Shown here piece by piece: positions 5,147-16,037 of a DNA stretch of 16,097 nucleotides (position 1 is the first letter of the stretch; every line of letters begins with the position of its first letter). Under the pieces are notes generated by a model. It saw only the letters and a program-made list of their open reading frames with translations, did no database searches and was not told the origin of the DNA. Location: the UHGV virus genome UHGV-1827629, one strand, 5' to 3'. The position numbers and the translations under genes were made by a program. The stretch comes from a virus.

Positions 5147-5851
5147 ATGAAAACATTCGCAGATCGACTCAACGCGGCTATGAGAGCCGCAGGCATATCC
5201 CAAGGGCAGCTGGCTGAGAAAGTCGGCATATCTCAACCTGCAATTCAGAAAATGACATCAGGCAAAACCACAGGCAGCCGTAAGATGGTTGAGCTTGCTC
5301 ATGCATTGAACGTGCGTCCGGAATGGCTCAGTTCGGGCATAGGCTCAATGCAGGACGAAGGACGCAAGGACTCCGCTATCCCACCAGAATCGGAATGGGG
5401 TAAAGTTGACGCTTGGGATAGCAAAACAGATCTGCCAGATGACGAGGTCGAAGTGCCATATCTGAAAGACATAGAACTTGCGTGTGGTGATGGTTCCTGC
5501 TTGGAAGATGACTATAACGGATTCAAACTTCGTTTTGCGAAGTCTACCCTTCGTAAGGTGGGAGCCCAGAAAGATAGCGTGCTGTGCTTCCCGGCATCAG
5601 GAAATAGCATGGAGCCCATGATCCCGGAAGGGACGACGGTCGCCATCAACACGAACGACAAAAAGATCGTTGATGGCAAGGTTTATGCAATAAGCCAGGA
5701 CGGATGGAAAAGGCTAAAATCCATTTATCGTGTGAGTCCTACCCGCATCGTGATTCGCAGCTTCAACAGTGAAGAGTATCCTGATGAAGAAGCGGATATC
5801 GAGAGCGTAGAGATTATTGGTCGCATGTTCTGGACATCTACTATCTGGTAA
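5147..5851 (+). CDS. cI: CI-like phage repressor (N-terminal HTH, C-terminal S24 LexA-like peptidase domain)
   Basis: HTH motif QGQLAEKVGISQPAIQKM; C-terminal GNSMEPMIPEGTTVAINT...WKRLK is the S24 Ser/Lys signature; divergent from cro across OR; no SD and ATG close to the putative -10. Confidence 0.85.
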   Translation: MKTFADRLNAAMRAAGISQGQLAEKVGISQPAIQKMTSGKTTGSRKMVELAHALNVRPEWLSSGIGSMQDEGRKDSAIPPESEWGKVDAWDSKTDLPDDEVEVPYLKDIELACGDGSCLEDDYNGFKLRFAKSTLRKVGAQKDSVLCFPASGNSMEPMIPEGTTVAINTNDKKIVDGKVYAISQDGWKRLKSIYRVSPTRIVIRSFNSEEYPDEEADIESVEIIGRMFWTSTIW

Positions 5852-5865
5852 TCAAGAGGGAAGGG

Positions 5866-6555
5866 ATGAAATTAGAACTAATAGCATTATCTTTACTGGC
5901 TTTAACTACGAACGCAATCGGCTCTAGCACCCTGAGCTGCGATTACGCTAAGTCGGACATCAGTAATGGAGCTAATGCTCCAATGATTCCTAGCGGAAAA
6001 GGCACTGTCGAATTTGATGGAAAATCCTTTAAAGCCACACGTCCAAATGGTGGTGTGATCATTTCACCAATAATCAGTGAACAAAAAAATGGAATGCTTT
6101 TTCTTGACGACAAGACAAAAGTGTTCGCGGCAAGCCTTTCTAAAACTGATTTCGCTATCTCTGACCGAATTGCTCGAATTACTGAGCAATGGGCCAACTG
6201 CATTGATGTTAGTCCATCGCCGAACAATTCAGATAACGACAAACCGGCAACTGCCTGGAAATATAGGTCTCTCACGAAGCAGGAGATAAATGCTGTTGAG
6301 GCAGCAGTGAAAGACCAATTGAAGGATCCAGAAAGTGCCAGATTCAAGCACTCTAAGTTTGTGAGCAACGGGAAAGGCGCTTACTGCGGCCTGGTTAATT
6401 CCAAAAACTCATATGGCGGCTATGCTGGAAACACTCCTTTCATGGTCATGCTTATCAACAATGGCAAACCTCACGCTGGCTTTATTGGTATGGGCGGAGA
6501 TGATGCCGAGACCCTGTCAACGCTATCCGTCTGCAAAGACAGTGGTTATTTCTAA
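5866..6555 (+). CDS. Secreted (signal-peptide) protein of unknown function, 229 aa, 4 Cys; moron in the rexAB-equivalent slot
   Basis: N-terminus MKLELIALSLLALTTNAIG-SS is a typical Sec signal peptide (AxG cleavage site, not a canonical lipobox); SD GAGGGAAGGG before ATG; visibly more AT-rich than flanks with rare Leu/Ile codons; followed by an intrinsic terminator. Confidence 0.65.
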   Translation: MKLELIALSLLALTTNAIGSSTLSCDYAKSDISNGANAPMIPSGKGTVEFDGKSFKATRPNGGVIISPIISEQKNGMLFLDDKTKVFAASLSKTDFAISDRIARITEQWANCIDVSPSPNNSDNDKPATAWKYRSLTKQEINAVEAAVKDQLKDPESARFKHSKFVSNGKGAYCGLVNSKNSYGGYAGNTPFMVMLINNGKPHAGFIGMGGDDAETLSTLSVCKDSGYF

Positions 6556-7349: not shown

Positions 7350-7571
7350 TTACTTGAACTTCCAGCCAGTTCCTTTCAGGGAATTCCTGAGCATGTCGTC
7401 GATCTGTTTTTTGACCGTGTCCGTGGCCTGATTGACAACATCGTCCTTAGTGATTTCTCGACCACAGTCAGCACAACTGACGCCGGTGAAATTTGTCTCA
7501 AAGTCAAAATCATCGGGCTGGTTGAACATCTCACTTCCGCAGTCAGGGCACACGGTCCGCATGGTTTGCAT
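7350..7571 (-). CDS. Small zinc-ribbon protein (73 aa; CPDCG...CADCG)
   Basis: Two CxxCG knuckles 22 residues apart; AAAGGA SD 7 nt before ATG (cat 7569-7571); by my hand count this frame is more coding-like than the overlapping + frame. The + ORF 7269-7610 is an unresolved alternative. Confidence 0.5.
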   Translation of the reverse strand: MQTMRTVCPDCGSEMFNQPDDFDFETNFTGVSCADCGREITKDDVVNQATDTVKKQIDDMLRNSLKGTGWKFK

Positions 7572-7829
7572 GAATATATCCTTTCTACTGTTGGGGAGAT
7601 TAAAGAGTAAGCGATTTCTTGCTGTTGGGGAATAGCGGGAAAGCGCGCGCCGGGCGCGGATAAATACCCCGGCACTAACTGGAATGTTTTGGGCTGGCAG
7701 ACGGTTATCAGCTAGTTGGTGAGGTAATGGCTCACCAAGGCGACGACGGCCTTCCCTGCTGCTTGAAAGCGGGGAGCCAGCACCAAAACATTTCTCCCGC
7801 ATCAGCGGGTAACGACAGAGGGTAAGGCT

Positions 7830-8105
7830 ATGAAAACAAGTAGCGGACAAGAGATTTTAAAGGGATTCAATGTTCGTGATATCTCTGCTGATTATGACGA
7901 GCCAAGGTTTGATGTTTTGTTTGTCCACGATGATGGCAAATGCCGGTATTCAAACGATGTTTTTGGTTCTGAGCAAGAAGCCATCAGTTACGCAGAAACA
8001 TGTAACGCCAGCACAGCAGACGATGAATGCTGGGACTACTACCAGCACTCTTCAAGCAGCGCCGACTGGAAGCTGATTCATCACATTGAAGCTAAAGCCG
8101 CCTAA
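7830..8105 (+). CDS. Hypothetical early protein (91 aa, acidic, Cys-containing)
   Basis: SD AGAGGGTAAGG before ATG at 7830; stop codon lies in the loop of an intrinsic terminator. Confidence 0.55.
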   Translation: MKTSSGQEILKGFNVRDISADYDEPRFDVLFVHDDGKCRYSNDVFGSEQEAISYAETCNASTADDECWDYYQHSSSSADWKLIHHIEAKAA

Positions 8106-8656: not shown

Positions 8657-9628
8657 ATGAGCGAAGTAACGGACTTAACTGTCATCGAAATCAAGCCGGA
8701 ACAGGCCCCAGTGCTTTACGTAGCGGGCGGCCTTGACGCGTACCTTGAGCAAATCCGCCAGGCTGTAAACGAAGTGCCGGACCTGTCCACGAAGAAAGGC
8801 CGTGACCGTGTTGCCTCTCTGGCAGCGCAGGTGTCCCGCAGCAAGACGGCAATCGAAAAGCCGGGCCGTGAGTACCTGAAGCGCCTGAAAGAGGCTGTGC
8901 GTCCGGCTGAGGCCGAAATTAAGCGATTCGTTGATGCCTGCGACGAGCTGCGCGATGCGACCCGCCGCCCACTCACCGAATGGGAAGCCGAGCAGGAACG
9001 CATTAAGGCTGAAGAAGCCATGAACGCGATGCACGCCGAAGCGCTGGAGATGAACATCAGGTTCGATCAGGAGCTGGCTGCCAAGTTCGAAGCGGACCAC
9101 GAAATGGCTCTACTGATGAACAAGGATTTTGACCGTGACCGCGAAGAGCAGCGCCGTCTGGCGGAACAGGCTCAGCGTGAACGTGATGAGCGGCTGAAAC
9201 AGGAAGCGGCAGAACAAGCCCGCCGCGATGCCGAAGCGAAGCACAAAGCGGAGATTGAAGCCGCAGCGCGCCGTGAAGCTGAAGAGAAAGCACGTGCAGA
9301 GCTGGCTGAACGCCAGCGCGTCGAAGCGGAACAGCGTACAGCTCGCGAGAAGCAGGAAGCAGAAGCCCGGGCAGAACGCGAAAAAGCCGCGGCGGTTGAA
9401 GCCGAGCGCCTGAAGGCCAAACAGGCCGAAGATGCCCGCCTGGCCGAAGAGAAGCGCCTCGCCGATGAGCAGGCAAAGCGTGAAGCTGACGTTAAGCACC
9501 GCAAGACGGTCGGCACCAACATCGTTAACGCGCTCACCAGCCACACCAGCTTAACCCGCGAACAGGCTATCGAAGTGCTTACCGCTCTGAAAGATGACCT
9601 CATCCCCTGCGCGAAAATTCATTACTGA
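8657..9628 (+). CDS. Large charged coiled-coil protein (323 aa) with an extended Glu/Arg/Lys/Ala-rich central helix; function unknown
   Basis: SD CAGGAG before ATG at 8657; ~150-residue central stretch of AEEKARAELAERQRVEAEQRTAREKQEAEARAEREK type; conserved-looking globular ends. Confidence 0.7.
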   Translation: MSEVTDLTVIEIKPEQAPVLYVAGGLDAYLEQIRQAVNEVPDLSTKKGRDRVASLAAQVSRSKTAIEKPGREYLKRLKEAVRPAEAEIKRFVDACDELRDATRRPLTEWEAEQERIKAEEAMNAMHAEALEMNIRFDQELAAKFEADHEMALLMNKDFDRDREEQRRLAEQAQRERDERLKQEAAEQARRDAEAKHKAEIEAAARREAEEKARAELAERQRVEAEQRTAREKQEAEARAEREKAAAVEAERLKAKQAEDARLAEEKRLADEQAKREADVKHRKTVGTNIVNALTSHTSLTREQAIEVLTALKDDLIPCAKIHY

Positions 9629-9635
9629 GGCAACC

Positions 9636-9761
9636 ATGAACGCATACCTCACTTACGACCGAATCGAAGATCGGCGCTGGGTTGAGCAGCAGCTCACCGA
9701 CGAGAAGGAGAAGTGGATCGACGACCGGGCGAAAGAACTGATCGCCATGTTCCCGAAATAG
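9636..9761 (+). CDS. gam: Gam-like (RecBCD inhibitor) N-terminal fragment, 41 aa, apparently truncated
   Basis: MNAYLTYDRIEDRRWVEQQL resembles the start of lambda GamS ([22 protein letters not shown], from memory); GAGG SD; sits immediately upstream of bet as gam does in lambda, but stops after 41 codons. Confidence 0.4.
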   Translation: MNAYLTYDRIEDRRWVEQQLTDEKEKWIDDRAKELIAMFPK

Positions 9762-9820
9762 AAGAAGAGTGGGATCGCCTTCATCCAACCTGCCCGTTTT
9801 AATTTTTGAGGGGATTAACG

Positions 9821-10666
9821 ATGGCAAACGAATTAACAATCACAGCGAAGTCGCTTCAGGAGATAGGCGTCGACGTCTCCACATGGAGTGCACTGAAGAA
9901 CAGCATCTACCCTGGCGCCAAAGACGAATCGGTAATGATGGCGCTTGACTACTGCCGCGCCCGCCAGCTGGATCCGTTGCTCAAACCTGTCCACCTCGTT
10001 CCGATGTACGTTAAAGACTCGAAAACAGGTAAAGGTGACTGGCGCGACGTGGTCATGCCGGGCATCGGGCTTTACCGCATTCAGGCAGACCGCTCTGGCG
10101 ATTATGCCGGGGCACGGGAGCCTGAGTTCGGGCCCGATGTAACTCAGACGCTTACTGGTGTCGAGGTGACCTTCCCTCAGTGGTGCAAATACACCGTTTT
10201 CAAGCGCATGCCCAGCGGCGAGATCGTCGAGTTCAGCGCCAAAGAATACTGGATTGAAAACTATGCCACCGGCGGCAGCGAAACAACGGCGCCGAATGCG
10301 ATGTGGAAAAAGCGCCCATACGGACAGCTGGCGAAATGCGCGGAAGCCCAGGCGTTGCGTAAGGCATGGCCTGAGATTGGACAGCAGCCTACCGCCGAAG
10401 AAATGGAAGGAAAATCACTGGATGTTGATATCCGTGACGTCACGCCGCGCAGCACAACAGAATCACTTCCACCAGCAGCAAGCGAAGAAACGCTTCAGGC
10501 GATAACCGATCTCTTAACATCGCTGAATAAAGACTGGGAGCAAGACTTCCTCCCAGTTTGCAGCGACATCTTCAAACGGCCAATTCTTGAGGCGTCAGAC
10601 CTCACTGAAGAAGAGGCACAGAAAGGGTTCAACTTCCTTCAGAAAAAAGCTAAGGCGGCAGCATGA
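9821..10666 (+). CDS. bet: Bet/Red-beta family single-strand annealing protein
   Basis: C-terminus [55 protein letters not shown] matches lambda Bet's C-terminus from memory; N-terminus divergent but same pattern; stop overlaps exo start (ATGA); SD GAGGGG before ATG 9821. Confidence 0.8.
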
Positions 10667-11343
10667 CACCAGAAATTATCTTTGCCCGCACCGGTGTTGA
10701 CGTAACCACTATCCAACAGGGCGATGAGGCGTGGCACCGGCTGCGCCTCGGCGTCATTACTGCCTCAGAAGTACACAACGTCATATCCAAGCCGAGATCG
10801 GGTAAGAAGTGGACAGATATGAAAATGTCCTACTTCCACACGCTGCTCGCGGAGGTATGCACAGGCGTGGCGCCAGAGGTTAACGCCAAGGCGCTGGCCT
10901 GGGGCAAGCAGTACGAGGAAGACGCCCGCACCCTCTTCGAGTTCACAACTGACGTGAAAGTCACGGAGTCTCCGATCCTGTTCCGTGACGAGAGCATGCG
11001 CACCGCGTGCTCCCCTGACGGCCTATGCAGTAACGGGTTCGGCCTTGAGCTTAAGTGCCCTTTCACCTCTCGCGATTTCATGAAGTTCCGCCTTGGCGGT
11101 TTCGAAGCCATCAAGTCTGCGTACATGGCCCAGGTGCAGTACAGCATGTGGGTTACCGGAAAAGACGCCTGGTTCTTTGCCAACTACGACCCGCGCATGA
11201 AACGCGAAGGTATTCACCACGTCGTCGTTGAGCGGGATCCACAGTACATGACCGATTTCAACGAAATGGTGCCGGATTTCATTGAGAAGATGGACGAAGC
11301 GCTGGCGGAGATCGGCTTCACGTTCGGAGAGCAGTGGAAATGA
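10663..11343 (+). CDS. exo: Lambda-type 5'-3' exonuclease (Red-alpha / YqaJ family)
   Basis: Near full-length similarity to lambda Exo as I recall it (MTP.II..RTG.DV...[63 protein letters not shown]...ALAEIGF.FGEQW). Confidence 0.95.
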
Positions 11344-11440
11344 AACGCACACCCTTCTATCGCCGGCCAGGGCGAGCCGGGCAATTCTCGGGCCTCCGCG
11401 AGCAAGTCCATGGAGAATTTGCAAATCATGGGGGCAAGTC

Positions 11441-11659
11441 ATGACATCTGAAACAGACAACGCCATCCGCGCCGCCTGCCGTCGCTGCACCGAGAAAATC
11501 CAGCAGGCCATGCGCAAGAAGCCAAAGCCTAACTGGAACGAAACGGTGCCTCCCATCATCAACAAGCATCATAAGAAAATTGAAGCTCTGGGAGTTAGCC
11601 TCCTGGAGTTCGTCGTATACACAGGGCGGCTTAATCGCCGCTTCGGAGCAGAACAATGA
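11441..11659 (+). CDS. Hypothetical protein (72 aa), first gene of a coupled three-gene cassette
   Basis: Internal ATG of track ORF 11282-11659 (MTSETDNAIRAACRRC...); stop overlaps the next ATG as ATGA. Confidence 0.5.
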   Translation: MTSETDNAIRAACRRCTEKIQQAMRKKPKPNWNETVPPIINKHHKKIEALGVSLLEFVVYTGRLNRRFGAEQ

Positions 11660-12522
11660 CAACAAAAAAATGGGGTCATAACGAGCTTGCTCATGACCTT
11701 GCAGAGCATTTGCGCCAGAACACAGCGCGCATCTGCTGGGAGGATATGCAGCTTGGGCCCGCCGGAACGTGCCGACCTGATGTCTACTCTATTGCTCACA
11801 GCTACAGCAAGTTCTGCCCAGTCGTCTATGAGGTTAAAGTCAGCGTAGGTGATTTCCGGGCTGACGTTACAGCAGGCAAATACACCAAATACTTCAGCTA
11901 TGCAGGTGGCGTTGTTTTTGCAGTTCCTGAAGGCATGCTCAAGAAAAGCGACATCCCAGATGGTTGTGGCTTGATGATCCGGAAGGAAACTGGATGGCAT
12001 ACCCTCAAGGGGCCGACAATGCGCCAGATTGATAACCTACCTCGCGACGCCTGGATGAAGTTGCTTATGGATGGCATGAAGCGACAGGCAGAGAGAACCC
12101 AAATAAAAAATCGCGTAATCAACACCTACCTCAGCGAACAAAAACTTATGAAGCGACATGGCAGCGAAATCGCCGATCTTGTTTGTCGAGCGCATCGGTC
12201 GAAGGAGCGGCTTGAGCAGCAGGTTAGGGATAACGATGAAAGGCTGAAGAACCTGCGCCAGGAAAGTGAGGAGGAGATGCAACGCCGACGTAAGCGCCGG
12301 GAGGAATCGGAGGAAAGGTTAACCGACGCTCAGCAAGGTCTGGCGAAAGCACTTGGCCTCGACCCGAATGTCCCTATGTATGTTCTGACAAGGACGCTAT
12401 GGGAAGCAATGCGCCGACTGACCGAGGATGAAGAGATAAAGAGGTTGCGAGGAATATTGTACAACCTTGAGCGCACGCTGAATGACGGTCTGAAACCATT
12501 ACCCGGGGAGAAAGCCGCATGA
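11656..12522 (+). CDS. PD-(D/E)XK nuclease-fold protein (MmcB-like N-terminal domain) with a charged coiled-coil C-terminal half
   Basis: Motif RPDVYSIAHSYSKFCPVVYEVKVS gives a D...EVK PD-(D/E)XK signature; C-terminal ~140 residues are Arg/Glu/Lys-rich coiled coil; ATGA overlaps at both ends. Confidence 0.65.
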   Translation: MTTKKWGHNELAHDLAEHLRQNTARICWEDMQLGPAGTCRPDVYSIAHSYSKFCPVVYEVKVSVGDFRADVTAGKYTKYFSYAGGVVFAVPEGMLKKSDIPDGCGLMIRKETGWHTLKGPTMRQIDNLPRDAWMKLLMDGMKRQAERTQIKNRVINTYLSEQKLMKRHGSEIADLVCRAHRSKERLEQQVRDNDERLKNLRQESEEEMQRRRKRREESEERLTDAQQGLAKALGLDPNVPMYVLTRTLWEAMRRLTEDEEIKRLRGILYNLERTLNDGLKPLPGEKAA

Positions 12523-12710
12523 ACAAAGCCTCGCCCGTTGATTTGAGGAAGAGCATCGAAATTGCCAATCACCTAGCCCACATCGGGATTCGCTTTGTGC
12601 CGATTCCTGTGGCGACCGAGGAAGAATTCCAGACGCTGGCCGCCGAGCTTTCACTACGGCTTGAGCAGATGGCAGTCGAAGCCGAGAAGAATGAAGGCGG
12701 TGCAGCATGA
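12519..12710 (+). CDS. Hypothetical protein (63 aa), last gene of the cassette
   Basis: ATG 12519 overlaps the upstream stop; GGGGAG SD; followed by an intrinsic terminator. Confidence 0.5.
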   Translation: MNKASPVDLRKSIEIANHLAHIGIRFVPIPVATEEEFQTLAAELSLRLEQMAVEAEKNEGGAA

Positions 12711-12725
12711 AGGCACTGATCACCG

Positions 12726-12750
12726 GGTCGCTAAAGCGGCCTTTTTTATT
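12726..12750 (+). terminator. Candidate rho-independent terminator
   Basis: GGTCGC-TAAA-GCGGCC hairpin (one G-U pair) followed by TTTTTTATT. Confidence 0.55.
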
Positions 12751-12798
12751 GCTGGCGTTCACCTTCAACCGAATTAACAGACAGTTCGCGGAGTGACT

Positions 12799-13098
12799 AT
12801 GGAAGATTTTAAAGGCACTAAAGGTAATTGGTCATATAGCAAAGAGACCGGAACAATTCGCGGTAATGGTGGCCTTCTCGCTGAGTTACTGATTAATGGT
12901 TCCGAAGACCATAACGGCACGCTCATGGCTGTCGCTCCTGAATTGCTGGAAGCACTGCAATTATCACTTACCGCCATGAATGAAATGGGTGACATCCTAA
13001 ATTTTCACGACATGGCAGATGCAGAATCAGTAGAGAAGCTCACTCCAGCATTTGAAATGGCTAGAACTGCTATCAACAATGCCCTCGGTAAGGAGTGA
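12799..13098 (+). CDS. Hypothetical protein (99 aa)
   Basis: ATG at 12799 with GCGGAG SD (the track's 12793 start is a GTG two codons upstream); stop adjacent to the next gene's SD. Confidence 0.5.
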   Translation: MEDFKGTKGNWSYSKETGTIRGNGGLLAELLINGSEDHNGTLMAVAPELLEALQLSLTAMNEMGDILNFHDMADAESVEKLTPAFEMARTAINNALGKE

Positions 13099-13100
13099 CC

Positions 13101-13322
13101 ATGTCCGATATCATCGACACAGCAGCAGAGATTGAAGAGCTTCAGCGTAACGCTGCCCTTTCCGCTCACCGGATCAACCGCAACGCCGTCTCAGCTGAGC
13201 ATTGCGCGGAATGCGACGAAAAAATCCCCGAGCCGCGCCGCGCTGCCGTTCCCGGCTGCAAGACGTGCTCCAGTTACCAGGAAGAAATCGAATTGAGGAA
13301 TAAGCAGAGGGGGATCCAGTGA
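13101..13322 (+). CDS. TraR/DksA-family C4 zinc-finger protein
   Basis: CAECDEKIPEPRRAAVPGCKTC shows the CxxC...CxxC spacing of the TraR/DksA zinc finger; AAGGAG SD before ATG 13101. Confidence 0.7.
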   Translation: MSDIIDTAAEIEELQRNAALSAHRINRNAVSAEHCAECDEKIPEPRRAAVPGCKTCSSYQEEIELRNKQRGIQ

Positions 13323-14004
13323 AAGATCGTGGAATGATTTTTAATGAGTATCAGGTGCGCGCCTTGCTTGATGGCAGCATGACGCAGGTTCGGCGCCCTT
13401 CAAATGGCGTCATACTCGGGCTACTGAAATTGCAGAGCGCGACGACGGAAGCATGTGGCCATGGAGCGAAGATGAGGAGCACGTGTGCGATTACTGGCAT
13501 CCATGTCCATTCGGTGCAGTTGGCGATGCGATTTATGTCAGAGAGTCATTTTCACGGCTCGACGCATTTAACTTCTTTGATCCGGCAGTTCCTCAAGAAG
13601 TCCCGGACTTCTGGTATTGGGCCGATGGTGAGCCAGAATGGGGAGACTGGACACGTCCACAATCTGGCGCAGTAATGCCTCGCGCCGCCAGCCGAATCAC
13701 CCTGGAGATAACCGGCATCCGAGTCGAGAAACTTCAGACGGCTAATGAATCAGACTTGCTGAATGACCTTGGCGACATGCTCGAACACTGCGAAACCGTA
13801 GCTGGACGAGCCTTCAACCATGCCGAGCATTATGCGATCGCTGGCGTTCCGGTAGGGCTGTGTCCAGAAATGCACGGCTTTAAAGCGTGGTGGGATAAGG
13901 CCAATGGCGAAGGTAGCTTCGACTCCAACCCTTGGGTCTGGGTAATCGAATTTAAGGTGGTGCCCAATGTTCCAGCTAATTCAACGGGGTCAGATTTACG
14001 CTGA
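13319..14004 (+). pseudogene. ASCH-like phage protein interrupted by a frameshift (N-terminus in one frame, C-terminus in another)
   Basis: Frame of 13319/13334 encodes MIFNEYQVRALLDGSMTQVRRP, then degenerates and stops at 13675; the frame ending at 14004 opens after a TGA at 13369-13371 and encodes ...CPFGAVGDAIYVRESF...PRAASRITLEITGIRVEKLQ. Both halves fit one ASCH-like protein family from memory. Confidence 0.5.
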
Positions 14005-14649: not shown

Positions 14650-14997
14650 ATGGAAGAAATAATTTTCACCCGCGACGAGGCGGCGAACTTCCTGCGCGTC
14701 AGTGAAGGGACTGTGGCCGAATGGATAAAGTCTGGAAGACTCGCCGCTACCCGCAAAAATCCCGCTAAAAAGAAAAGTCCATATCTCATCTGCAAGACAG
14801 ATTGCATTGCAGCGTTGAAGAACACGATCCACAATCAGCCGGTGAATGCGGTTGATGTGCAGGAGGGTAAAGCATGTCAATCAAACAACGTGCCGGTACG
14901 TGGCACTGCGACTTCGTTACGCCTGGTGGCGTCAGAATTAGACGGTCTCTTGGCACAACGGACAAAAGGCAAGCGCAGGAACTCCATGATCAGCTAA
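14650..14997 (+). CDS. xis: Excisionase (AlpA/Xis-type HTH), 116 aa
   Basis: [36 protein letters not shown] is an excisionase-type HTH; GGAG SD before ATG 14650; immediately upstream of and overlapping int by 124 nt in another frame. The track's 14494 start is probably an extension. Confidence 0.6.
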
Positions 14998-16037
14998 AAG
15001 CTGAAGCGTGGCGTGTAGACAAGATGGGGGAATATAAGGCGCACACTTTTGATGAAGCATGTGTGCGCTGGCTGAACGAGAAGCAGCATAAGAAGAGCCT
15101 GGACGATGATAAAAGCCGGATCGGATTCTGGCTTATGCATTTCCGGGGAATGGACCTGTCCGAGATTACAGAGGATAAAATTCTCTCGGCCGCCAGTGGA
15201 ATGGTAAACAGGAAGCACAGACTTAATTGGGAGTCACGGAGGGATAGTTGCCTCAGGATGGGTAAGCCTGTTCCCGAGTACAAGGAAAAGCCAGCAGCAC
15301 AGGCAACCAGAACAACACACCTTGCTTTCATTCGGGCTTTGCTCAGATGTGCGGCTAACGAATGGCGATGGATAGCCAAAGCGCCGAATATCAAATGCCC
15401 TGTTCCAAAGAACAAACGTATTCGATGGCTGACAAAAGATGAGGCGCAGTCATTAATACGTGAATTGCCTGACCACTTTAAGCCGGTGGTTGTTTTTGCT
15501 CTGGCAACGGGATTGAGGCGATCCAACATAACGGATCTGGAATGGTCTCAGATAGACATGCAGAGGAAGGTTGCGTGGATACACCCAGAGGATGCAAAAG
15601 CAGGCAGGGCGATTGGGGTCGCCCTTAATGATTCTGCATGCAGGGTATTACGCGATCAGGTAGGAAAGCACAATCGGTGGGTGTTCGTTCACACTGAATC
15701 ATCTGTTCGTCCGGATGGAACCAGGACTAAAGAGGTCAGGAAGATGAGGAGCGATGCTAACACAGCGTGGAGGGCTGCGTTAAGAAGAGCCGGAATTGAA
15801 AACTTCCGTTTCCATGATTTGCGGCACACCTGGGCAAGCTGGCTTGTGCAGTCCGGCGTTCCGTTATCAGCGCTTCAGGAAATGGGAGGTTGGGAGAGCA
15901 TTGAAATGGTTCAGCGCTATGCTCACTTAGCACCGAATCACCTGACGCAACATGCGATGCAAATTGACTCATTTCTGGCAGGAAATGGCACAAATATGGC
16001 ACAAGGCACGTTTGCAGACTTGGTGAATATCGCGTGA
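14874..16037 (+). CDS. int: Tyrosine site-specific integrase (P22/P4-like)
   Basis: N-terminal arm-binding motif [31 protein letters not shown]; C-terminal catalytic region [39 protein letters not shown] with the R..H.R.Y residues; strong SD AGGAGGG; ends 16 bp before the tRNA 3' end. Confidence 0.95.

Follow-up and report, generated by a model that had tools for sequence, protein, structure and literature searches.

An MmcB-like nuclease gene as one occupant of a variable slot between orfA and orf63 in the early operon of a lambdoid prophage

Comparison of related prophages gives good support to the view that orfA and orfC, two small genes in the early-left region of an Enterobacter-group lambdoid prophage, are backbone genes around a variable slot and that orfB, the gene between them, is one interchangeable occupant of this slot. 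The explanation that we regard as probable as a whole combines this backbone slot with a role of orfB as an early-expressed DNA-processing nuclease of the MmcB family. As far as the available literature shows, the slot between orfA and orf63 (as orfC is also called here, after its lambda homologue) and a long-form MmcB subfamily with a fixed-length helix have no prior description.

Genomic context of orfA, orfB and orfC

The genes around orfA, orfB and orfC show that the window, that is, the whole stretch of 16,097 nt that was analysed, represents the immunity and early-left region of an Enterobacter-group lambdoid prophage. The features relevant to this context are as follows:

5147-5851, + strand: cI-like S24 repressor
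9806-10666, + strand: RecT
10663-11343, + strand: exo (YqaJ/lambda-type exonuclease)
11441-11659, + strand: orfA, 72 aa, small basic backbone gene just 3' of exo
11656-12522, + strand: orfB, 288 aa, predicted MmcB-family PD-(D/E)XK nuclease with helical tail
12519-12710, + strand: orfC, 63 aa, homologue of lambda Orf63 (DUF1382)
3' of orfC: P22 Y8K6-family gene
13095-13322, + strand: TraR/DksA-type zinc-finger gene (orf73-like)
Between the TraR/DksA-type gene and the xis candidate: DUF4222 gene and dATP/dGTP pyrophosphohydrolase gene
14650-14997, + strand: HTH_17 excisionase (xis) candidate
14874-16037, + strand: tyrosine integrase (int)
On the minus strand: an Ead/Ea22-like gene, replication genes of the lambda-P and O-like types, CII and Cro

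The order proposed for the + strand is cI-like repressor, RecT, exo, orfA, orfB, orfC, TraR-like gene, xis and int. An initial reading of the DNA, made from the sequence only, had placed three ORFs of 72, 288 and 63 aa in the accessory region between exo and xis and had described them as translationally coupled through ATGA overlaps. This description was borne out: exo (10663-11343) lies upstream and the HTH_17 candidate and the integrase lie downstream, all three ORFs are on the + strand, and the ATGA start/stop overlaps are at 11656-11659 (orfA/orfB) and 12519-12522 (orfB/orfC). The three ORFs are taken to be real genes, since each has many homologues and since gene callers made the same three calls on independent gut-metagenome contigs carrying the same prophage. 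A megablast search of the region against cultured phages matched orfA only, in Enterobacter phages, with 89-96% identity.

[quoted passage not shown] In lambda, however, orf60a overlaps orf63 directly, whereas here the unrelated orfA replaces orf60a and a cargo slot intervenes before orf63. The literature on the lambda exo-xis region that was examined, including a review, does not mention a nuclease in this region.

A consensus scan of the + strand from 10500 to 13050, which covers the sigma-70 consensus only and could miss weak or unusual promoters, found no sigma-70-like promoter, and a scan for E. coli-type LexA boxes from 9200 to 14000 found no site near orfA-orfB-orfC. Because no promoter-like site precedes the three genes on the + strand, expression from the early transcript would be expected, and synteny with lambda suggests that this expression would be driven by pL. 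After induction or infection, orfB would then be translated from this transcript by coupling.

Identity of the flanking genes

By sequence, orfC is a homologue of lambda Orf63, to which it is 66% identical. It matched the Pfam family PF07131 (DUF1382) with 105 bits (E 1.6e-30), and the sole solved chain that it matched was PDB 8DSB (E 5.7e-18), which we take to be the NMR structure of lambda Orf63 reported in PMC10869804. The Orf63 protein of lambda is produced early, is small and dimeric and has pro-lytic effects, while no biochemical activity is known for it (PMC10869804, PMC8614690); its dimer carries a hydrophobic ligand-binding cleft (PMC10869804).

orfA belongs to phrog_303 and was found in prophages of Enterobacter, Klebsiella, Lelliottia and E. 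coli only. It had no match in Pfam and no sequence match in the PDB, and its predicted structure is a three-helix bundle with uninformative structural neighbours. Lambda orf60a (DUF1317) has the same position, and an identity of orfA with Orf60a was ruled out by the missing Pfam match together with a BLASTP comparison that produced no alignment up to E 100.

Distribution of the three genes across prophages and genomes

Co-occurrence was analysed with orfA, orfB and orfC as separate anchors. The set anchored on orfB comprised 128 loci, of which 80 were from viral contigs and 48 from species-representative genomes spanning gamma-, beta- and alpha-proteobacteria and beyond. A contiguous trio was found in 22 of the 80 viral loci; these 22 are all closely related lambdoid prophages of enterobacteria, and their orfB is at least 69% identical to the window copy. 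The 47 viral loci in which orfB is more distant and the 48 genome loci contained no contiguous trio. orfB occurred without orfA and orfC in 97 of the 128 loci (49/80 viral and 48/48 genome loci). The remaining viral loci were variants, with an extra gene between orfA and orfB (L069, L071 and L072), with orfC missing (L075, L077, L079 and L083) or with orfC upstream (L080). No conserved neighbour family of orfB was found across the 48 genome and 80 viral loci.

The flanking genes told the same story from their own side. Among the 80 closest orfC loci, orfB was absent from 65 and present in 15, and 58 carried orfA and orfC without orfB; among the 80 closest orfA loci, orfB was present in a single one and absent from the other 79. 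Roughly 430 orfA loci and 326 orfC loci are present in IMG/VR. The earlier reading of the three genes as a cassette did not hold up, given that the contiguous trio is confined to one narrow clade. Failure of the genes to co-occur elsewhere had been named beforehand as the outcome that would speak against a cassette, and this is largely what was observed.

Even within loci that carry the trio, the identities to the window copies differ among the genes. In L073, orfA is 58%, orfB 90% and orfC 92% identical; in L081, the respective values are 56%, 69% and 90%, and in L061, orfA is 76% and orfB 95% identical. Independent assortment of orfA, orfB and orfC, including among the trio-bearing loci, is well supported by these comparisons. 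The 22 trio-bearing prophages also differ in their flanks, which carry different exonuclease and integrase types. Since the trio is kept in prophages with differing flanks, there may be some local functional interplay of orfB with orfA or with Orf63.

A stronger version of this idea would be that orfA-orfB-orfC form a functional module, with a nuclease and two small partners, for example an inhibitor or a specificity factor. Such a module would be in keeping with the 22 loci, among the 80 viral ones, in which the trio is contiguous and joined by ATGA overlaps, and the cleft of the Orf63 dimer could in principle bind a helical partner (PMC10869804). Nevertheless, a module appears highly improbable, as orfA and orfC usually occur without orfB, 97 of the 128 orfB loci lack both orfA and orfC, lambda orf63 is present without any such nuclease, and the variant loci described above break the order or the content of the trio. 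Moreover, the overlaps and the terminator are common to all other cargo genes that were found between orfA and orf63.

A variable slot between orfA and orf63

Three short elements delimit the slot and the end of orf63:

11642-11659, + strand: left slot junction, TTCGGAGCAGAACAATGA, with GGAG as ribosome-binding site in the last orfA codons, then the ATGA overlap
12508-12522, + strand: right slot junction, GGGGAGAAAGCCGCATGA, in which the cargo gene ends, with a ribosome-binding site and the stop/start overlap for orf63
12725-12752, + strand: candidate intrinsic terminator attached to orf63, a hairpin (12725-12742) followed by a T-run

At least eight size classes, ranging from 197 to 813 nt, can be distinguished in the spacing between orfA and orfC, and the gap was never empty when orfB was absent. 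At least nine unrelated cargo genes fill the slot in other prophages. These include genes for a DUF4406 (nucleoside deoxyribosyltransferase-like) protein and for an endonuclease with HNH_3 and AP2 domains, as well as several families of unknown function; members of phrog_1372, 3451, 18739, 3205 and 4657 are among the occupants. In the related prophages, the motif TTYGGAGnnGAAnnRTGA ends orfA before every alternative downstream gene, and the GCnGCATGAACA junction precedes orfC irrespective of the upstream gene. Most cargo genes begin at the RTGA that ends orfA and finish at the start of orfC, and most of the alternative cargo proteins terminate in "...AA". The 4-nt overlap is also a habit of orfB itself, as orfB homologues in all lineages overlap by 4 nt with whichever gene adjoins.

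These observations indicate an exchange of whole genes in the slot among related prophages, in which an occupant runs from the RTGA at the end of orfA to the ATGA at the start of orf63. The short conserved junctions, which hold ribosome-binding sites, may serve as crossover points in this exchange. Mosaic gene exchange at gene boundaries is reportedly a classic property of lambdoid phages, described in work by Juhala, Hendrix and Clark. Lambdoid mosaics and the hotspots of P2/P4 (PMC9122126) likewise show conserved flanks around unrelated cargo with exchange at gene boundaries, whereas in the present case the boundaries lie within an operon and consist of short conserved motifs for translational coupling. 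A further difference is that the cargo of the orfA-orf63 slot has no predicted promoters of its own and includes no recognised defence systems.

The hairpin at 12725-12742 has 7 pairs and a 4-nt loop and folds with -10.7 kcal/mol (z = -2.4), although the count of terminator-like sites (1 observed, against 3.2 expected in shuffles) is not above chance. In related prophages, the stem variants of which were folded individually, the hairpin is kept with differing stem sequences (GGUCGC/GCGGCC versus GGGAGCU/GGCUCC) and the pairing is preserved. Because pairing is retained despite the different stems, the hairpin is probably real. The hairpin and T-run follow orfC regardless of whether a locus contains orfB. 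An intrinsic terminator had been proposed as the end of a three-gene unit; the terminator itself is likely to stand, but it goes with orf63 and not with such a unit.

The description of orfA, orfB and orfC as a discrete unit could, consequently, not be maintained. The same junctions are found with at least nine other cargo genes and the hairpin is present without orfB, which assigns the overlaps and the terminator to the backbone genes, and orfA and orfC mostly occur without orfB. This has a corrective value beyond the present locus, as overlapping starts and stops and a common terminator in a lambdoid early operon do not delimit a functional module and should not be taken for one in sequence scans. 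The slot could, in addition, represent a natural catalogue of early accessory genes in the poorly understood exo-xis region.

The nuclease domain of orfB

Features of the orfB protein were assigned as follows:

11656-12039, + strand: N-terminal nuclease domain (aa 1-128), PD-(D/E)XK, MmcB/DUF1052 family
11779-11781, + strand: predicted catalytic residue D42
11830-11832, + strand: predicted catalytic residue E59
11836-11838, + strand: predicted catalytic residue K61
12040-12522, + strand: C-terminal tail (aa 129-288 and stop), with linking helices, charged helix and conserved terminal module

orfB matched the Pfam family MmcB-like (PF06319) over residues 28-134 with 27.1 bits (E 3.8e-6), a modest score although above the family cutoff of 22. 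Precomputed PF06319 matches are found for most close homologues of orfB and are missing for many of the more distant ones; the NCBI name of close homologues is already "MmcB family DNA repair protein". Twenty homologues from Enterobacterales, Pseudomonas, Burkholderia and Ralstonia, with identities down to 43%, were aligned, and the residues D14, D42 (in RPDVY), E59-x-K61 (in YEVKVS), D66, R68, D70 and K75 are invariant in this alignment. The D...EVK signature that had been noted in the middle protein is thus present as D42 and E59-V-K61, and its assignment as a PD-(D/E)XK nuclease with a motif conserved in homologues was confirmed at the level of the alignment.

Structure prediction agrees with this assignment. 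The AF2 model of orfB (mean pLDDT 82) has a PD-(D/E)XK core in residues 1-125, predicted as a restriction-endonuclease-like alpha-beta-beta-beta-alpha-beta arrangement with a DUF1052 structure as its nearest neighbour. Foldseek searches against viral models (BFVD) found many phage proteins labelled as MmcB-like DNA repair proteins, and the fold neighbours also include Can2/Card1-type and restriction nucleases. Searches of PDB sequences with orfB, both as a single sequence and as a profile, gave nothing real, and the profile did not reach 3DNX. The alignment and the model together support well the classification of orfB as a long-form MmcB/DUF1052 PD-(D/E)XK nuclease with an intact D...ExK triad, which would be expected to have enzymatic activity.

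The closest known family to orfB is MmcB/DUF1052 (PF06319), represented by Caulobacter crescentus MmcB and by the structure 3DNX (SPO1766). The classical members are mostly chromosomal alpha-proteobacterial genes (PMC3424549). Their proteins have about 145-170 aa, whereas orfB adds a 160-residue helical tail that is specific to its subfamily.

The C-terminal tail of orfB

The AF2 model places tail helices at residues 130-154, 157-168, 170-232, 241-257 and 259-279. Charged residues make up 40% of residues 129-288 and 51% of residues 170-232. The segment from G169 to L233 has exactly 65 residues and is gapless in 20 of 20 sequences, yet no other part of the protein is less conserved. The helical module at the terminus, by comparison, contains the conserved motifs LAxxLGL, RRLxxDxEIxRLR and PLPGE. 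A crude heptad test found no strong a/d seam in residues 170-232, and the charged segment looks in part like an E/R/K-rich single helix. The tail, which had been read as a charged coiled coil, is therefore helical and highly charged as described, while the coiled coil itself was not backed by the heptad test.

When the tail alone was searched against 1.84 billion representatives, 53 proteins were found, nearly all of which have the nuclease-plus-tail architecture or are fragments of it. One match was a 715-aa protein that aligned over a short charged stretch only. Since the tail-only matches nearly all share the same architecture, the tail is, on these sequence matches, a signature of the subfamily and not a domain common to other types of proteins.

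Possible functions of orfB

The only studied relative of orfB is Caulobacter MmcB, a PD-(D/E)XK endonuclease that the cells need in order to tolerate mitomycin C and cisplatin (PMC9578287). The modest Pfam score and a profile that does not reach 3DNX make this relation a distant one, and the repair role may not transfer to orfB. Caulobacter mmcB is SOS-regulated (PMC9578287), while orfB is located in a temperate-phage early operon and no LexA-box-like site was found nearby. The literature searched contained no functional study of any long-form MmcB protein from a phage.

Homologues of orfB were also found in cultured phages, namely Ralstonia phages Eline, YL1 and RPZH6, Burkholderia phages BgManors32 and Bups phi1, Pseudomonas phage Itty13 and Microcystis phage MACPNOA1. 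In cultured temperate phages, these homologues are located in early operons beside replication or exonuclease genes; in Eline the neighbours are a replication initiator and a helicase loader, and in Itty13 the neighbour is an exonuclease. The genes that repeatedly lie near orfB homologues in other proteobacterial prophages encode DNA methyltransferases, DnaB, DUF1376 proteins and YbcO. Judging from Caulobacter MmcB and from the genes for recombination, replication and methylases that neighbour orfB homologues in other phages, the most likely role of orfB would be that of a metal-dependent endonuclease that aids the phage's own recombination and replication. Taken by itself, this functional step, with orfB as an early endonuclease on damaged or branched DNA, is a tentative proposal by analogy and somewhat more doubtful than not. 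Long-form MmcB-like phage nucleases represent a widespread subfamily, and the cultured Ralstonia, Burkholderia, Pseudomonas and Microcystis phages make their genetics feasible.

The three genes had initially been suggested to carry a defence or anti-defence function, and orfB could indeed be a stand-alone effector, such as a nuclease for counter-defence, for superinfection exclusion or for length-measured cleavage, with the slot as a new accessory hotspot for effector cargo. A hypervariable slot between conserved genes is a layout typical of the P2/P4 accessory and defence hotspots (PMC9122126). orfB is, moreover, patchily distributed among related prophages, has an intact nuclease triad and is occasionally inactivated (by frameshifts in L102 and in L003/L085), and Can2/Card1-type and restriction nucleases are among its fold neighbours. 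However, PADLOC found no match for orfA or orfC and matched orfB in the charged tail only, with E 0.016 or weaker, and the NCBIfam scan of the three proteins likewise gave weak charged-tail noise only. No promoter of its own is predicted for orfB, which is embedded by its overlaps in an early lytic operon, unlike a gene expressed in lysogeny. The other slot occupants are no known defence genes, and the homologues in cultured phages sit amid replication and recombination genes. A defence or counter-defence function is, consequently, considered unlikely. If the slot were such a hotspot, the other occupants (phrog_1372, 3451, 18739, 3205 and 4657) would likewise be unexplored effectors.

T4 seg and mob genes spread by cutting empty sites. 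In a similar manner, orfB could be a selfish, free-standing homing-type endonuclease that invades empty slots by cutting them. As expected for such an element, the nuclease gene lies between conserved genes, occurs in many unrelated contexts without a conserved partner having been found, and is patchily present with some degenerate copies; another slot occupant, the HNH_3+AP2 protein, has the typical architecture of a homing endonuclease. Against homing, all cargo genes use the same junction motifs and most have no recognisable nuclease domain, so that exchange at these junctions does not need self-encoded cleavage. The flanks are not co-converted, as orfA is 58% and orfB 90% identical in L073 and the respective values are 76% and 95% in L061, and no sequence-specific DNA-binding domain was recognised in orfB. 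Furthermore, the entire 288-aa architecture, including the fixed-length tail, is retained, with 43-48% identity, in homologues as far apart as those of Enterobacter and those of Burkholderia and Pseudomonas, which points to a conserved cellular or phage target and not to changing homing sites. Homing thus seems improbable, even more so than defence, and the exchange of orfB as backbone-slot cargo with a DNA-processing role is the preferred explanation.

Type II restriction endonucleases have the PD-(D/E)XK fold in common with orfB, and an unprotected restriction enzyme would not be tolerated. A restriction-modification pair was rejected for this locus, as no methyltransferase was identified among those of the window ORFs that were scanned against Pfam and none was seen beside orfB in the trio-carrying prophages. 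In other lineages, about a quarter of the orfB homologues directly adjoin a DNA methyltransferase gene.

Gene boundaries and broken gene copies around the trio

The 3' end of orfC, the lambda Orf63 homologue that closes the trio, consists of GGxGCxGCATGA (window 12700-12712), and the identical junction motif terminates the cargo genes of the slot, i.e., the orfA-orfC interval. In some related prophages, a gene encoding a 106-aa predicted membrane protein begins at the orfC-terminal ATG (L056/L057 position). Since the end of orfC carries a cargo-type junction motif and a further gene can start there, these motifs may recur at successive gene boundaries of the early-left operon.

orfB, the gene encoding the MmcB/DUF1052-family nuclease, is frameshifted in one near-identical prophage (L102, 4001-4865) and in the copy from Pantoea stewartii (L003 and L085, 4001-4862), and several fragments of 155-176 aa are present among its database homologues. 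orfB appears to be dispensable and to be lost now and then. For the backbone gene orfA, some homologues (P0214, P0229 and P0235) diverge completely past approximately residue 40, a pattern resembling a switch of reading frame or a site of recombination within the gene.

Downstream of the trio, two ORFs overlap in different frames:

Window 13319-13675: first ORF of the overlapping pair
Window 13453-14004: second ORF of the overlapping pair

The second ORF covers only positions 109-265 of the phrog_874 profile (277 positions), and it also matches a 229-aa protein encoded upstream of orfB in L119, over the C-terminal portion of that protein; the two ORFs may represent a split or frameshifted gene.

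Methyltransferase genes beside orfB homologues

In about one quarter of the loci carrying an orfB homologue (L002-L132), a DNA methyltransferase gene directly adjoins the nuclease gene (e.g., L013, L028, L094, L106 and L020), frequently with a 4-nt overlap between the two. These loci are mostly from Burkholderia, Cupriavidus and Comamonas, along with some enterobacterial prophages. Several methyltransferase families are represented; the N6_N4, C-5 and Dam-type families were confirmed with Pfam for representatives only, and the remaining methyltransferases were judged from motif alone. No methyltransferase gene was found beside the nuclease gene in the window or its close relatives.

Other ORFs in the window

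Two further ORFs were considered:

Window 7350-7850, - strand: 166-aa ORF, opposite to the early-left operon
Window 5866-6555, + strand: 229-aa ORF, immediately downstream of the cI-like repressor gene

The 166-aa ORF showed a weak PADLOC match to the candidate defence protein PDC-M14A (E 5.4e-5) and no match in Pfam. Its orientation is similar to that of a moron or sieB-like gene, and for this reason a defence role is more plausible for this ORF than for the trio. The 229-aa ORF, which occupies the position of rexAB in lambda, had no match in Pfam or PADLOC.

The window also encodes a TraR/DksA zinc-finger protein (13095-13322), which is 59% identical to a product encoded in the ea22-orf61 interval of lambda, where the RefSeq record (NC_001416) has no annotated CDS:

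L001 2902-3114 (lambda 30401-30613), - strand: homologue of the TraR/DksA zinc-finger protein

This lambda coding stretch corresponds to orf73 as described in PMC8614690.
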